Virus genome (UHGV): UHGV-0149439
Source of the DNA: a virus
DNA length: 29,037 nt
Direction: 5' to 3' (one strand)
Shown in pieces: positions 1,657-14,674 of the stretch. Below the pieces are notes generated by a model, which worked only from the letters and a program-made list of their open reading frames with translations, had not been told where the DNA came from and ran no database searches. Made by a program: the position numbers and the translations under genes. The number at the start of each line of letters is the position of its first letter. Position 1 is the first letter of the stretch.

Positions 1657-2832
1657 TCAGTTAGTTTTTTTATTCAAGTGGGTAACAGATGTATTGTTAT
1701 CGTATGCTTTAAGATACCTACCGTAATGTCGAAAAAGCATCTCTGGCCCCTTATGCCCCATTTGCCCCGCCAGCCAGAAAAGGTTAACTCCTCGACTGAT
1801 TAGGCGTGTGGCATATGTGTGACGGGTCTGATAGGGATTGCGGTACCTGATACCGGCTTTCCGTAGCGTTGGCACCCACGCTTTTTTCCTTATTGCATCC
1901 GCGCTGGCCCATGGCTTGTATGTCTTTGGATCCTCAAAGACACAGCCATCTTTCATGAAAGTAAAGGGCTTTTGATCGTTAAGTGCGATTATCGCTTCCT
2001 CAGTTAATTCAACTTTGCGAGTTCCCGCCTTAGTTTTCGTACCTTTTGTCACGCCTGAAACACTGGCGCTCTGTACATGCGCCGTCTTCTCAATGAAATC
2101 AATATCCCTCCAGCGGAGTGCGCATAGTTCCGAGCTGCGAAGTCCTGTCTGGATCGCAAATCTGAATAAGTTCTTCCACTGCTTATTGCCTGTTGATGTT
2201 AACAGCGCGTTCACCTCAGCTGGTGACAGCGGATCAACCACATAACTACTTTCTGCCTCTGATTTATCACTTTGGTACCGTGAAGCTGTCACCAGTGATA
2301 CAGGGTTAATCTGAAGCACACCATCCGTCACCGCCTCATCCAAAGCTGAACGCAGGAATGACAGTTGGTTTCGGATAGTCTTTAATGTTGTTTTCTGGTT
2401 CTGGATCCATGTCTTCAGCGCGGCCGGCGTCAACTCACTTGCAGGAAAAATATGAAGTGATGACAGCGCGCTTCGGCATTTCTTATATCCACCAATTGTT
2501 GAAGGGGATAGTTTTCTCGTTTCACAGATAACCAGATACTCGTCCAGGTACATCTTCACCGTTTTGCCTGCGGCAGCGTTGCCGAAAATTTTTAACCGGG
2601 TAGAACGGGGAAAGTATTCTGCATAAACAAATGTCCCCCTCTCGATCTTGTTATGGATTTCGCCGAGTGTGCGCTCGGCGTATTTGATGTTTTTAGGAGT
2701 TACGTCCAGATTAGAAAGGGGCTCACGGCATTTAACCCCTTTATAAGTGAAAGTAATATTGATGGTTTCGCCGTTGCGGTGTTTCCTGATGGTTACGCCG
2801 CGCGGGAGCTTAGGCGATTCTGTCGTGCCCAT
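1657..2832 (-). CDS. int: Tyrosine site-specific integrase (lambda Int family), 391 aa
   Basis: Size and C-terminal catalytic region typical of tyrosine recombinases (R...H-x-x-R...Y arrangement, HTYATRL... context); GAGG Shine-Dalgarno 8 nt upstream; excisionase immediately upstream. Confidence 0.93.
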   Translation of the reverse strand: MGTTESPKLPRGVTIRKHRNGETINITFTYKGVKCREPLSNLDVTPKNIKYAERTLGEIHNKIERGTFVYAEYFPRSTRLKIFGNAAAGKTVKMYLDEYLVICETRKLSPSTIGGYKKCRSALSSLHIFPASELTPAALKTWIQNQKTTLKTIRNQLSFLRSALDEAVTDGVLQINPVSLVTASRYQSDKSEAESSYVVDPLSPAEVNALLTSTGNKQWKNLFRFAIQTGLRSSELCALRWRDIDFIEKTAHVQSASVSGVTKGTKTKAGTRKVELTEEAIIALNDQKPFTFMKDGCVFEDPKTYKPWASADAIRKKAWVPTLRKAGIRYRNPYQTRHTYATRLISRGVNLFWLAGQMGHKGPEMLFRHYGRYLKAYDNNTSVTHLNKKTN

Positions 2833-3062: not shown

Positions 3063-3614
3063 TTAGTTGGTTTTCTTTAGTCCAAAGTAAAGTCCTGCGG
3101 CTATGCTTATTATGCCTGCAGCTAGAACACCAATAATCCAATAAAATAATGTTATAAATCGTTCTAACTGTTTGTCTGAGTAATCACTCATAACTTTTAA
3201 TGATGTGCTCAATGACTCCATATCTTTCTTCATGAGAGGTAAAGCCATTGCTTTTTCAGGACTATTTCCAAGTATATTATTAAGCGTGGATATCTTTTTC
3301 TGTATGTCATCAACTTTTACTTCCAACGCTTCTATTCGTATATTATCTGGGGTAAGGGTTGAAGTATTTTTTAAGGCACTTAACGTGTTTCTTACCTGAA
3401 ATATCTCATCCCTATAGGTGCTTATTTCGTTCATGAGATGATCTGTATCTATTTTTTTATCATAAGATGTAGGTAATGAAACATTTACTATTGAAGTGGC
3501 TTTATCTTTTATTTCTAAGGTCAAAGGAATGAGTATCGATCCCAAAGCGACCAGCATAAGAATAGGGGATAGTATTGCTATACTCTTTGCTAATGCGTTA
3601 CTTGTAAATGACAT
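3063..3614 (-). CDS. Hypothetical two-TM coiled-coil membrane protein (183 aa), low-GC
   Basis: Hydrophobic helices at both N- and C-termini with a charged heptad-like middle; GAGGGA Shine-Dalgarno before the ATG; TTGCAA -35-like element at 3651-3656. Confidence 0.7.
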   Translation of the reverse strand: MSFTSNALAKSIAILSPILMLVALGSILIPLTLEIKDKATSIVNVSLPTSYDKKIDTDHLMNEISTYRDEIFQVRNTLSALKNTSTLTPDNIRIEALEVKVDDIQKKISTLNNILGNSPEKAMALPLMKKDMESLSTSLKVMSDYSDKQLERFITLFYWIIGVLAAGIISIAAGLYFGLKKTN

Positions 3615-3801
3615 GAGTCCCTCTTCATAGTATTGTGTAGTACGTTTTTATTGCAACTTACTGTTATGGATAGTTTTTTGTTAAAGTCATTGAGAGATTA
3701 GCATGTTTTAGCGTTAATTCATTGCTTTAATGAGGCCAAAACTAATATTCCAAGCCCTGTCTCATTTGCTTAATGACACTATAGGCCAACAGACAATTTA
3801 A

Positions 3802-3900
3802 TCATGGCAGCGTCCAGTGTCGATTTGATTTATTCATAAACATACTCGTATCCAGTAAGCCAAGAAAATCTGGCACTACGGTCATGCGGTCATTACTCAT
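3802..3900 (-). CDS. Candidate small ORF (32 aa, MSNDRMTVVPDFLGLLDTSMFMNKSNRHWTLP), below the ORF-track size cut-off
   Basis: ATG preceded by GAGGG with a 7-nt spacer; same orientation as the leftward operon. Confidence 0.3.
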   Translation of the reverse strand: MSNDRMTVVPDFLGLLDTSMFMNKSNRHWTLP

Positions 3901-4209
3901 GGTTTTACCCTCGTTATGGCGGCTGCCACCGCCGAACTTTCTCCATACACAACAGAGAAGGGCATCTGCATTAGTCGGCGGCTTGCAGAGACCGCTTTCT
4001 TTTTGCCCGGGTGGATTGGGTTATGAGCCCGTCGCCCGGTGATGCCCTTTTCTGTTGTGCCCTGAAAAAGGCTGGCGGTTACCGGACAAGTGGGAAAACA
4101 CCGGGCCGCCAGAACAGGGAGTTACTTGTTATTGCTTTAGCCTGCTTTTAACCACATCAGGCGCGGTGGTATCCTTCTAAGTCGCTACAACCACGAAGGA
4201 ATTTTTTTT

Positions 4210-4449
4210 ATGAGCAATGTTACTTATCTCAACCATGCCAGGCTCGATGCCATTGAGTTGGCTATATCAAGGCTGGCTATTGCTATTACAGAGGCTGAAG
4301 GACCACATACTAAAGAGCTTGAAAGTTCTATCGCCCATTTCCGCGCGCTATTTGAAAAGCCTGATATCACTGAAAAAGAGCGCGAAACCTACCTCAGGAC
4401 GATAAGGTTGTTGGATCCATTAAATAGCGACCCTACCGAGCCGTTCTGA
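4210..4449 (+). CDS. Hypothetical protein (79 aa)
   Basis: ATG with AAGGA Shine-Dalgarno 9 nt upstream; its 3' end overlaps the convergent ORF 4420..4725 by 30 nt. Confidence 0.4.
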   Translation: MSNVTYLNHARLDAIELAISRLAIAITEAEGPHTKELESSIAHFRALFEKPDITEKERETYLRTIRLLDPLNSDPTEPF

Positions 4450-4725
4450 ATCGAGGCGTGCCGCTCTTTCCCTTCGCTCTAAAATCGCCTCAACAATTTC
4501 GACTCCATTGAGGCGCTTCTTTCCATTAATGTCCTGCTGGACCTCTTCTAATGCTGTTTGCGCAAGCTGAATGCGCGATTCAGTCCCGGAATTTGGCTCG
4601 AGCTGTTGAACTCGCTTAGCATCCTCCAGCAGTAGAGCAATGATGTGCTTCAGTTCGTTTGCGTCCACCGTGAACTCCTTTGAAATTTTAAGTGTTAGCG
4701 AATCATCCGGTTCTTCATATGCCAC
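4420..4725 (-). CDS. Hypothetical protein (101 aa), first ORF downstream of the left operator (lambda N position) but not N-like
   Basis: GTG start without a clear Shine-Dalgarno; charged helical composition; position immediately left of the OL-like repeats. Confidence 0.35.
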   Translation of the reverse strand: MAYEEPDDSLTLKISKEFTVDANELKHIIALLLEDAKRVQQLEPNSGTESRIQLAQTALEEVQQDINGKKRLNGVEIVEAILERRERAARLDSERLGRVAI

Positions 4726-4783
4726 CGACGGCTACTTCGTGGGCGTCCTGCCTGTTCGCTATGGAGTAGACAATAAAATTAAA

Positions 4784-4821
4784 TTGCGAATAACGCAAGT
4801 AAATAATTGCGAATTGCGCAA
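4784..4821. promoter_or_regulatory. Left operator candidate: two 15-bp sites TTGCGaataaCGCAA (4784-4798) and TTGCGaattgCGCAA (4807-4821)
   Basis: Perfect inverted half-sites TTGCG/CGCAA with 5-bp spacers, centres 23 bp apart; related sites recur between cI and cro. Confidence 0.5.
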
Positions 4822-4833
4822 TATTAGGTGCAT

Positions 4834-4858
4834 AAAAAAACCGCCATAAAGGCGGTTT
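4834..4858 (-). terminator. Intrinsic terminator downstream of cI
   Basis: Hairpin ccgcc-ataaa-ggcgg followed on the minus strand by a 7-nt U-tract. Confidence 0.6.
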
Positions 4859-4876
4859 CAACATTGATATGTAGCG

Positions 4877-5569
4877 TCAGGCGTGACGTTTGAATGATTG
4901 AGATTGGCTTATCATTACTTTCCCAAAAATGTAAAAACGGTGTTCGTTAGTCTTGTCCACGGACCATTCTCTATATTTTGGGTTATCCGATATCACCAAC
5001 AACTTATCAGGTATCATCTGTAATCGTTTGACGTAAATTTTATCATCAAAACCAAATACATAGATTCCATCACCATCGAACTCATGAATAGAGATATCAA
5101 CGAAGAGAAGATCACCAGGCTCGATTGTCTCAGCCATACTGTCGCCTCGAACGTTGATTACCTTTACTTGATCTGCCGTTCTTCCGCCGAACATCGCTAG
5201 CGCACGTTCATTGTTGTATTCGATTGACCTGATGACATCAATGATGTCGCTGCCTTGAATAAAGCCGCCACCAGCACTGGCACTAACATCAAGAATCTCC
5301 ACTCTAAACACAGATCCATCTCCAGAATGTGGATTACTACCACTGTATTCACATACAGTAGTTTTATTTCCACCTGGAGTAAATAGATCAGCAACGCTAA
5401 CGCCTAAAGCTTGAGCATATTTGCTAAGTGATTGTTCAGTAAATGACTTCTGCTTGCCAGTTTCTACACGCGAGATGTTAGCTCCGTCGACACCAACGGC
5501 TTCAGCAAGATCAGCGATTTTTAGACCCTTCGCAGTGCGAAGTTCTCTTATGCGGTTTCCTATGTTCAT
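4877..5569 (-). CDS. cI: CI-type prophage repressor: N-terminal HTH, C-terminal S24 LexA-like autopeptidase (230 aa)
   Basis: N-terminal HTH (IADLAEAVGVDGANISRVETGK); C-terminal region with GDSM (catalytic Ser) and a downstream Lys; divergent from cro. Confidence 0.9.
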   Translation of the reverse strand: MNIGNRIRELRTAKGLKIADLAEAVGVDGANISRVETGKQKSFTEQSLSKYAQALGVSVADLFTPGGNKTTVCEYSGSNPHSGDGSVFRVEILDVSASAGGGFIQGSDIIDVIRSIEYNNERALAMFGGRTADQVKVINVRGDSMAETIEPGDLLFVDISIHEFDGDGIYVFGFDDKIYVKRLQMIPDKLLVISDNPKYREWSVDKTNEHRFYIFGKVMISQSQSFKRHA

Positions 5570-5589
5570 GCGTCTATTACATGTTTTTT

Positions 5590-5652
5590 TTGCGTGATGT
5601 GCAAAGCAACTTGCGCAAGTCGTATGTTCTAATTAATATGCGTTTTACGCAA
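5590..5652. promoter_or_regulatory. Right operator/promoter region between cI and cro
   Basis: Operator-like sites TTGCGtgatgTGCAA (5590-5604), palindrome TTGCGCAA (5611-5618), ATGCGttttaCGCAA (5638-5652); candidate cro promoter -35 TTGCGC (5611-5616), 17-bp spacer, -10 TAATAT (5634-5639). Confidence 0.5.
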
Positions 5653-5666
5653 TTAAAGGAGGGTAT

Positions 5667-5912
5667 ATGCAATCACCGTTACGAATCTTGCGTAAATCGC
5701 AAGGTATGACTCTTTCCTATGTAGCAAAAGGGGTTGATATCGACCCGGGAAATCTAAGTCGGATAGAGCGAGGGCAGCAAATTGCTTCCCTAGATATTGC
5801 TGAACGTCTAGTCCGTTTCTTCGCGGGAAAAATCAATGAGCTAGAAATCCTTTATCCACACCGCTATTCGAACTGTACAGGCGCGAGTACAGACATAAAA
5901 CCACAGGAATAA
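5667..5912 (+). CDS. cro: Cro-like HTH regulator (81 aa)
   Basis: AGGAGG Shine-Dalgarno; HTH segment MTLSYVAKGVDIDPGNLSRIERG; divergent from cI. Confidence 0.8.
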   Translation: MQSPLRILRKSQGMTLSYVAKGVDIDPGNLSRIERGQQIASLDIAERLVRFFAGKINELEILYPHRYSNCTGASTDIKPQE

Positions 5913-5922
5913 GGGGTTAACC

Positions 5923-6474
5923 GTGGGTAACGAACCAATCTGGAAAGTCGAACGTCAGCCTAGTTGGCTGGTGGTAGCGATTAAAAAAACGATTACCGAT
6001 CTGCCTGGTGGATATTCTGAGGCTGCGGAATGGTTGGGCGTGACAGAGAACGCATTGTTTAACCGCCTTCGTGTGGACGGGGATCAGATCTTCCCTATGG
6101 GATGGGCGATGGTGCTACAGAAAGCCGCCGGTGTTAGCTACATAGCAGATGCGTTTTCTCGTCAAACAGATAACGGGATTCATATCCCTGGTGCAGCACC
6201 AGAAACAGAGAACGAAGAAATTGGCTTAAAGCTGGCTGAGCTGGTGGGCAGGCTTGGGGATCTGGTCAACGCATACCGTCGATACATCGATGATGGTGTA
6301 GTTGATAAAGGGGAGTGGGACAGTCTGAATGAAATCGCCTACCAGTTCCGGGTAACGCTTATGACGTTCCTGAACCTGATTTCACGAGTTTATTGTCTTC
6401 CTGAAAAGAGTGACGCCCGCGAGTGTGCAGCTCCGGGCGCCTTGGCGAACAAATCTTCGAGTATGGAGAAATAA
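5923..6474 (+). CDS. CII-like phage regulatory protein (183 aa); family assignment tentative
   Basis: Position immediately after cro; AAGGGG Shine-Dalgarno then GTG; HTH-like segment AAEWLGVTENALFNRLR. Confidence 0.45.
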   Translation: MGNEPIWKVERQPSWLVVAIKKTITDLPGGYSEAAEWLGVTENALFNRLRVDGDQIFPMGWAMVLQKAAGVSYIADAFSRQTDNGIHIPGAAPETENEEIGLKLAELVGRLGDLVNAYRRYIDDGVVDKGEWDSLNEIAYQFRVTLMTFLNLISRVYCLPEKSDARECAAPGALANKSSSMEK

Positions 6475-14468: not shown

Positions 14469-14585
14469 ATGAAAGAAGGGGATTACTGGATTCAGCATGT
14501 GTGTGTTGTACAGGTGGCGTTTTACACCGATGACACTGTAGATGACCTGAAATGGGGAAAACAATCAAAGGAGTCTGGCACCTAA
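14469..14585 (+). CDS. Candidate small ORF (38 aa, MKEGDYWIQHVCVVQVAFYTDDTVDDLKWGKQSKESGT)
   Basis: GAAGGA a few nt upstream of overlapping ATGs; terminator-like hairpin downstream; weak support. Confidence 0.2.
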   Translation: MKEGDYWIQHVCVVQVAFYTDDTVDDLKWGKQSKESGT

Positions 14586-14674
14586 CCAGAGTCGATGATA
14601 TTTGCCATAACAGAGAGGCCGAAGTGCTTGAAGGTCCTCTCGCTCCATTAATGTAAGTAACCGTTCATACTTCG

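Follow-up and report, generated by a model that had tools for sequence, protein, structure and literature searches.

Can two convergent open reading frames (ORFs), which overlap at their 3' ends directly downstream of the leftward promoter PL of a lambdoid prophage, both be genes, and what would such an arrangement do? The question is raised by UHGV virus genome UHGV-0149439, a stretch of 29,037 nucleotides (nt) which was analyzed at its full length (hereafter the window) and which represents a lambdoid prophage of the e14/ST64B/SfV/CPS-53 type. The original prediction, made from the letters of the sequence, had noted the ORF pair at the position where the N gene would be expected. It had proposed that only one of the ORFs may be real, or that both form an antisense-regulated pair such as a toxin-antitoxin-like or exclusion module. 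Its ORF coordinates and the 30-nt overlap were confirmed exactly in the ORF list (Table 1). Our analysis suggests that the locus probably carries two real, independently transcribed genes placed tail to tail, namely an immediate-early gene of the YmfJ family on the minus strand (the minus gene) and a moron-like cassette on the plus strand (the plus gene), which together would work as a switch of the excludon type. In this model, promoter activity, expression timing and the antisense effect are what we infer.

Chance ORFs are frequent in this region: 63 ORFs of at least 40 amino acids (aa) overlap the first 9 kb of the window. As ORFs of such size are common by chance, the presence of a frame proves nothing on its own, and we relied on comparative data. 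The ratio of nonsynonymous to synonymous substitution rates (dN/dS) was calculated by the Nei-Gojobori method, with the plus-gene figures taken from unsaturated pairs. The plus gene showed a dN/dS of 0.05-0.07 and the minus gene a dN/dS of 0.16-0.26, which indicates purifying selection in each. The other five frames of the plus region gave values of about 0.9-2.4, except for the mirror antisense frame (0.26), which carries stops; in the minus region, the other frames reached approximately 1 or more, again with the exception of the usual mirror antisense frame with stops. Homologues are found in Salmonella, Enterobacter, Leclercia, Citrobacter, Klebsiella, Yersinia and Ewingella, and in Yersinia phage YeP1 the same pair is annotated. 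Judged by these comparisons, both overlapping reading frames are real genes: purifying selection in each frame and protein-level homologues of both in distant hosts refute the idea that only one of them is.

Selection is not evenly distributed along the minus gene. The ratio of the proportions of nonsynonymous and synonymous differences (pN/pS) was 0.20 in the N-terminal domain, 0.71 in the linker, 0.23 in the motif RLNGVEIVEAIL and 1.02 in the last 10 codons. Within the 30-nt overlap, the plus frame had a pN/pS of 0.15 versus 1.02 for the minus frame. The overlap is constrained via the plus gene only, and the last 10 residues of the minus gene evolve neutrally.

The start of the minus gene had to be revised. 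All 17 full-length homologues that were aligned (78-91 aa, most of them 82) start at the residue aligned with V20 of the ORF as first drawn, which corresponds to GTG 4668 with its AAGGAG, and e14 ymfJ carries an in-frame TAG immediately 5' of the equivalent start. GTG 4725, the start codon originally proposed, falls within the inner hairpin of a conserved leader RNA (4762-4694), and bases 4669-4725 are part of this structured RNA and not coding. The earlier start was thus mis-assigned, and the accompanying remark on a weak Shine-Dalgarno sequence concerns a codon that is not the start.

The minus protein shares 58% identity with YmfJ from the e14 prophage of E. coli K-12 over residues 1-50 (BLASTP, E 7e-19). 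YmfJ-type proteins consist of an N-terminal domain of about 44 aa, with the motif ELKHxIALLLEDAKRxQQxEPNxGTExRI, which was invariant in our alignment, and a variable C-terminal tail. When a profile of the N-terminal domain was searched against 1.84 billion representatives, 107 clusters were retrieved, mostly small proteins in which the domain is usually N-terminal and followed by variable tails. The position of the gene is also shared, as in e14 and other loci it is the first after a cI-like repressor, PL and the conserved leader, and is convergent with a small gene on the other strand, which we call cargo. By its domain and its position, the minus gene belongs to the YmfJ family. In the window, it is the only complete leftward gene ahead of the first terminator, a tL1-like element with a U tract behind it (fold energy -24.9 kcal/mol, z -1.99) that is kept in loci L009 and L010 with compensatory changes. 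In Cronobacter phage phiES15, relatives occupy the first position after PL, and in Shiga toxin (Stx) phages they lie two genes downstream of an annotated N. The minus protein is predicted to be soluble, helical and acidic, its structure model reached a predicted template modelling score (pTM) of 0.30, and it had no significant match in Pfam, NCBIfam or PADLOC, or to a PHROG with a function.

The plus gene matches phrog_28250 (E 1.2e-17). Its homologues form ten clusters with 51-97% identity (Salmonella, Enterobacter, Leclercia, Yersinia and Ewingella), and the annotated YeP1 homologue shows 37% identity. The protein is acidic and predicted to be soluble; AlphaFold2 models it as three helices, with a predicted local distance difference test (pLDDT) of 85.5 and a pTM of 0.70. 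No significant match was obtained in Pfam, NCBIfam or PADLOC, and fold searches gave nothing specific. In the searches made for the two proteins, a hit to DUF4363 was sub-threshold (E 0.045), and profiles compared with the sequences of the PDB yielded nothing significant. An intrinsic terminator of the plus gene is embedded in the minus-gene codons for RLNGVEIVEA (-10.3 kcal/mol, z -3.57, with 0 of 200 shuffles as good). This terminator is kept, with compensatory changes and a T-rich tail, in all loci with this partner: a C-G pair is changed to U-A in L018, a G.U is present in L014, and GGCC is found in L009 and L010. One of the compensations combines a synonymous Arg change with an Ala-to-Thr change in the opposite-strand gene.

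Upstream of the plus gene lies a 33-nt core that hardly varies among 68 viral contigs and E. coli prophages. A diverged copy is present in e14, and the flanks of the core on both sides are unrelated between groups. The core was searched for with a pattern that fixed the TG and the TAT of the -10 element and left the last three -10 positions free; over 53 loci, T-12, A-11 and T-7 were invariant, -9 took all four bases and -8 was C or T. These invariant positions match the critical bases of a promoter, which supports the reading of the core as a sigma-70 promoter, from which transcription of the plus gene would be expected to start near 4181-4183. Behind the core comes hairpin H2, and a Shine-Dalgarno sequence and an ATG follow core and H2 at a fixed distance in all 15 clusters of cargo genes described below. 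Over about 50 loci, the H2 stem occurs as CCTTC/GAAGG, ACTGG/CCAGT, CTTGG/CCAAG, TCTGG/CCAGA and GCTGG/CCAGC, and four different base pairs occur at position -9; this covariation is a direct reading of the stems, as the cassette-front alignment is structurally inadequate for a formal pair count. With its predicted promoter and its terminator, the plus gene reads as an autonomous promoter-gene-terminator accessory unit of the moron type. We also considered TGCTTTTAACCA in the core as a boxA and dropped it, because its strand does not fit transcription from PL and YeP1 has not kept it. A scan of the contigs with a 14-base pattern gave matches nearly all of which were chance.

Morons are autonomous promoter-gene-terminator units in temperate phages (HK97/lambda-type), and the known classic ones are located between late genes. 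Like them, the plus gene is a small accessory gene among essential phage genes, with its own terminator and a predicted promoter of the sigma-70 type, at a fixed site whose content varies (15 unrelated cargo clusters) in otherwise syntenic phages. Unlike them, the unit in the window runs antisense to the early PL operon, shares bases with the 3' end of that operon's first gene, and has a promoter region whose sequence is common to many cargos with almost no variation.

In about 70 prophage and phage loci, 15 unrelated clusters of small ORFs (57-148 aa) lie behind the same core, and one of these clusters is YmfI. In nearly every locus with a callable partner, cargo and first PL gene converge, with a 3' overlap of 12 to 168 nt. 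Other cargos, such as that of L001, have terminators of their own. When ten other cargo proteins were compared with Pfam, one matched DUF1883 and another gave a Lar-like zinc ribbon below threshold; nothing else was returned. Across the unrelated gene pairs of the approximately 70 loci, no sampled locus was seen with a normal intergenic spacer and a shared terminator.

A further observation concerns the annotation of the cargo slot. At 3380-3580 of L001, and in 14 other sampled viral contigs, the slot holds an unannotated zinc-ribbon ORF of 65-67 aa with a clear terminator. Opposite this ORF, an annotated 121-aa "ClpX C4-type zinc finger protein" gene overlaps it by 168 nt and reads through the terminator hairpin. 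In the gene calls of such ClpX-type loci, one gene is likely missing, and the other may be over-extended in many genomes.

The layout of the ORF pair is already known from the e14 genes ymfI and ymfJ (b1143/b1144), and the window pair is newly placed in that arrangement. The e14 genes are likewise found immediately to the left of a cI-like repressor (ymfK/cohE) and after the same conserved leader. There, ymfJ is homologous to the minus gene over the 50 N-terminal residues (58%), ymfI stands behind the diverged copy of core and H2, and the two genes are convergent with a 63-nt 3' overlap. The pairs differ in their cargo, as YmfI has 113 aa and is unrelated to the 79-aa helical protein of the window, and in the C-terminal halves of the YmfJ-type proteins, which are unrelated; the comparison transfers architecture, not biochemistry. 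The ymfI-ymfJ pair has been listed as a convergent excludon by ExcludonFinder, from RNA sequencing (RNA-seq) coverage (PMC12288877). Late in the SOS response, ymfJ of e14 is induced (log2 4.8) and its protein is detected, while ymfI reaches only 1.98 (PMC11002266), and the gene list of the YmfT iModulon includes ymfJ, ymfH, intE and xisE and leaves out ymfI (PMC12132413). Our literature search on the function of ymfI and ymfJ found only expression lists.

How could such a pair work? From the mapped signals, the PL transcript would cover the entire cassette, and the cassette transcript would cover about 105 nt of the minus gene. In the lysogen, where PL is repressed, the cassette promoter could fire, and its transcripts would oppose leaky expression from PL. 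After induction, strong PL transcription would run antisense through the whole cassette up to tL1 and would silence it via polymerase collision and the formation of RNA duplexes. Since PL would pass from repression in the lysogen to high activity after induction, mutually exclusive expression of the two genes is predicted, and the outcome would be an excludon-type switch based on convergent transcription. The 30-nt overlap itself would be a by-product, in which the minus frame continues into the cassette as far as the next stop codon, with its tail unselected. The window pair resembles known excludons in its convergent genes, in its probable overlapping transcripts and in promoters expected to be active in opposite states; it differs in that the overlap includes coding sequence, and not just long untranslated regions. 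The proposal of an antisense-regulated pair is plausible in its general sense, since the convergent overlap recurs in about 70 loci with 15 cargos and in the e14 excludon, and is not supported in its specific sense of a toxin-antitoxin pair, as discussed below.

The PL transcript begins with a leader that was conserved at 78-92% in SfV, SfII, ST64B, ZF40 and YeP1-3 and is present in e14 and many prophages. It is kept even though the promoters before it and the first genes after it are unrelated. Its structure consists of a closing stem, a small 5' hairpin and the inner hairpin. Covariation was found in 6 pairs, with 23 cells changed on both sides, a signal matched by 0 of 500 shuffles and one that collapses on sliding the partners. 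With a score of 94.5 bits, a covariance model of the leader picks out one copy in the 29-kb window. The fold of the single sequence is unremarkable (z 0.25). No Rfam family was found for the leader, the core or the GC-rich region, in searches of the whole window at the gathering threshold and of 3700-4900 at E up to 10. The leader may represent a new cis-acting RNA family in lambdoid prophages that lack N. An HK022-type put RNA was considered and rejected: besides the unremarkable fold, the window contains no second, PR-side copy, and the best score of the covariance model in HK022 22000-33500 (nun, cI, PL, PR) was 7.9 bits.

Several observations weigh against a switch made of two independent genes, including some on the choice of partners that are given further below. 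The promoter of the plus gene is a reading of the sequence, with 4/6 matches per hexamer plus the TG, and a generic promoter scan did not list it. Its terminator has a long loop (14 nt) and, in the window, a modest T tract, and the hairpin folds on the minus strand too (-14.6 kcal/mol, z -2.85). In e14, ymfI rises slightly, and does not fall, late in the SOS response (PMC11002266); this is unlike simple exclusion, and the array or RNA-seq signal may include antisense read-through. Moreover, a messenger RNA (mRNA) from the predicted promoter would lack the 5' arm of H2, as H2 overlaps the -10 element. H2 is also stabler on the minus strand, both summed over 34 variants (-321 vs -251 kcal/mol) and in the window (-19.0 kcal/mol, z -1.95, vs -11.8 kcal/mol, z 0.08 on the plus strand). 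The overlap with the -10 and the preference for the minus strand together point to a second role of the core outside our model, and the core may act also within the PL transcript. It is conceivable, although in our view unlikely, that core and H2 serve chiefly as an RNA element within the leftward transcript from PL, for example as a processing or stability site or as the body of a 3'-derived small RNA ending at tL1; the plus genes would then be translated from another transcript, and the promoter look of the core would be secondary. This would account for a hairpin that covaries although it contains bases of the proposed -10 and so lies outside an mRNA started there, and for the better folding of both H2 and H1 on the minus strand, where an A-for-G change in H1 gives G.U, versus A.C on the plus strand. 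Read on the minus strand, the core of the window also precedes tL1 by about 30-100 nt. Against this reading, the positions that never vary are exactly TG, T-12, A-11 and T-7 while -9 and -8 vary, and 15 unrelated cassettes all keep the same distance from the core to a Shine-Dalgarno sequence and a start codon. No other conserved upstream sequence is fit to serve as their promoter, the neighbouring genes are all on the other strand, and many loci have unrelated, much longer sequence between the core and the next minus-strand terminator. The two roles of the core are, in any case, compatible with each other.

The two proteins could also form a cognate module, either toxin-antitoxin-like or made of an exclusion factor and its antagonist, in which a plus protein expressed in the lysogen interacts with a minus protein expressed upon induction, with the variable C-terminal part of the latter being cargo-specific. 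In about 70 loci, cargo cluster and partner cluster correspond almost one to one, and 11/11 plus-gene cassettes in that sample face a tail of the KKRLNG type. The KKRLNG..EIVEAIL tail stays with the plus gene even where the N-terminal domain is replaced (L018), its motif is under selection at the amino-acid level, as the pN/pS given above shows, and opposite regulation of both genes would fit an antagonist pair. A one-to-one pattern is, however, expected from physical overlap and from the sampling of close relatives, and the link between cargo and tail is explained, though only in part, by this overlap and by the plus-gene terminator that lies inside the tail. Beyond that sample, partners vary. 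Members of the plus-gene family face YmfJ-type genes with a KKRLNG tail, in L018 a gene with a different N-terminal domain and the same tail, in YeP1 a YmfJ-type gene whose short tail is unrelated, in L006 and L007 a ClpX zinc-finger gene, and in L008, L019 and L020 a gene of a 93-aa family. Distant homologues of the plus gene (37-52% identity) thus have partners without the KKRLNG tail, and the 93-aa family is elsewhere found opposite an unrelated cargo of 148 aa. YmfJ-type genes, in turn, face at least four cargos, namely the plus gene, YmfI, a 95-aa cargo and a 78-aa cargo. The variable partners of the plus gene argue against a cognate toxin-antitoxin pair. With at least four partner types each way, a toxin-antitoxin-like or exclusion module of cognate proteins finds no support: neither protein matches a toxin, antitoxin or defence model in Pfam, NCBIfam or PADLOC, fold searches gave nothing specific, and both products are soluble, helical and acidic, with neutral residues in the part of the minus tail that overlaps. 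A type II toxin-antitoxin system was rejected on the grounds that the genes are convergent and not in an operon, that no toxin or antitoxin fold or model was matched, and that the families do not strictly co-occur; a type I system was rejected because both products are soluble helical proteins under purifying selection and neither strand is non-coding. Overall, we regard a cognate module as rather improbable. It is more improbable still, to a degree that we would hardly consider it, that the minus gene is a functional substitute for N, that is, a protein antiterminator acting on the conserved leader. Topographically, the N position is correct: as for N/nutL of lambda and Nun/putL of HK022, the minus gene is the first after PL and the sole gene before a tL1-like terminator. 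No N homologue was found among the six ORFs scanned in 3063-6474, and a conserved structured RNA occupies the place of a nutL or putL. The putL site of HK022 starts at about the PL transcription start (PMC9378689), and the approximately 69-nt structured RNA of the window likewise begins near that point. The gene itself is not an N analogue. Its protein begins with MDANELKHIIALLLEDAK, which is acidic and hydrophobic and has no arginine-rich motif, in line with the earlier remark that it is not Arg-rich like N; it has no Pfam match to N, and no boxA/boxB features were recognised in the leader. The acidic N-terminus and the relatives in Stx phages, which lie downstream of a bona fide N and coexist with it, argue that the minus gene is not N-like. 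In lambdoid phages, the N protein and its nut site co-vary between phages, with one such protein per phage. The leader of the window hardly varies among loci in which unrelated proteins (ClpX zinc-finger, the 93-aa family and others) replace the first gene, which is the opposite of this co-variation and counts against an N role.

If the cargo genes are expressed in lysogens, the locus would offer a simple natural model for switching by convergent transcription. For annotation, the mis-called start is corrected and both overlapping frames should be kept; the problem is probably systematic, with many E. coli prophages in which the cargo ORF is missing and the opposite gene over-extended. The site has repeatedly taken up small genes, at least 15 unrelated ones, behind one promoter-like sequence and, given such expression in lysogens, the slot would be a compact source of new prophage functions in host benefit or exclusion. 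One may go further and imagine that core, H2, ORF and terminator form a dedicated cargo slot, always adjoining the first PL gene, of e14/ST64B/SfV-type prophages for host-protecting or exclusion proteins, which are expressed in the lysogen and silenced by convergent PL transcription, and that the leader is a new class of cis-element that replaces N-dependent antitermination in phages without N. We offer this extended scheme as speculation that has a small chance of being correct.

Table 1. Positions of the ORF pair, its signals and neighbouring genes in the 29,037-nt window.
Feature	Position	Strand	Details
Plus ORF (plus gene)	4210..4449	+	79 aa, ATG start
Minus ORF as first drawn	4420..4725	-	101 aa, GTG start
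Minus gene, corrected	4420..4668	-	82 aa, start at GTG 4668
Shine-Dalgarno AAGGAG of the corrected minus gene	4675..4680	-	6-nt spacer before GTG 4668; read from sequence
3' overlap of both coding regions, 30 nt	4420..4449		left unchanged by the start correction
33-nt core	4140..4172	+	GCCTGCTTTTAACCACATCAGGCGnGGTGGTAT; upstream of every cargo gene
Predicted sigma-70 promoter of the plus gene	4148..4175	+	-35 TTAACC (4148-4153), 16-nt spacer, extended -10 TGgTATCCT (4167-4175)
Hairpin H2	4173..4199		CCTTC/GAAGG; from the 3' half of the -10 to the plus-gene Shine-Dalgarno
Intrinsic terminator of the plus gene	4486..4524	+	hairpin 4486-4515, CGCCTCAA / TTGAGGCG, then T-rich CTTCTTTCC
tL1-like intrinsic terminator of the immediate-early PL transcript	4064..4112	-	CTGGCGG..CCGCCAG, then CCTTTTTCA
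Conserved structured leader RNA, 69 nt	4694..4762	-	starts about at the PL transcription start
PL promoter, including operators	4770..4821	-	-35 TTGCGT (4798-4793), -10 TATTGT (4775-4770)
Two operators (repeats)	4782-4798, 4805-4821		overlap the leftward PL promoter
Integrase	1657-2832	-	excisionase gene also present
LexA-like S24 repressor, cI-like	4877-5569	-	
Cro-like helix-turn-helix protein	5667-5912		
CII/CP76-like protein	5923-6474		

The PL promoter in Table 1 was identified by direct reading and by alignment to the corresponding regions in related loci. Further genes of the window encode an O-like replication protein and DNA methyltransferases. A 16-nt direct repeat (4558-4573 / 5611-5626, TTGCGCAAGCTGAATG / TTGCGCAAGTCGTATG, 81% identical) has one copy inside the minus gene and the other in the PR/operator region, and contains the TTGCG half-site of the operators; it could be due to chance or be an additional weak repressor site.

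Between the tL1-like terminator and the start of yfdP, a stem of 3945-3966 with 4041-4062 (inverted repeat 3928-3966 / 4041-4079) encloses about 74 nt. It is 94-96% conserved in E. coli prophages, and in Yersinia phage YeP1 it is kept with changed inner bases. Its GGCGGT/ACCGCC segments could alternatively pair with the stem of the tL1-like terminator. Of the yfdP-like gene itself (3829-3900, minus strand), only the first ~23 codons are left; in related prophages yfdP is followed by yfdQ and yfdR, and the early-left operon is shortened in the window. After this shortened operon comes an ORF of 183 aa (3063-3614) with coiled-coil and membrane features. Elsewhere in the window, the Hfq-binding small RNA isrI gives the only Rfam match, at 14564-14660 on the plus strand, with 47.5 bits against a gathering score of 45.

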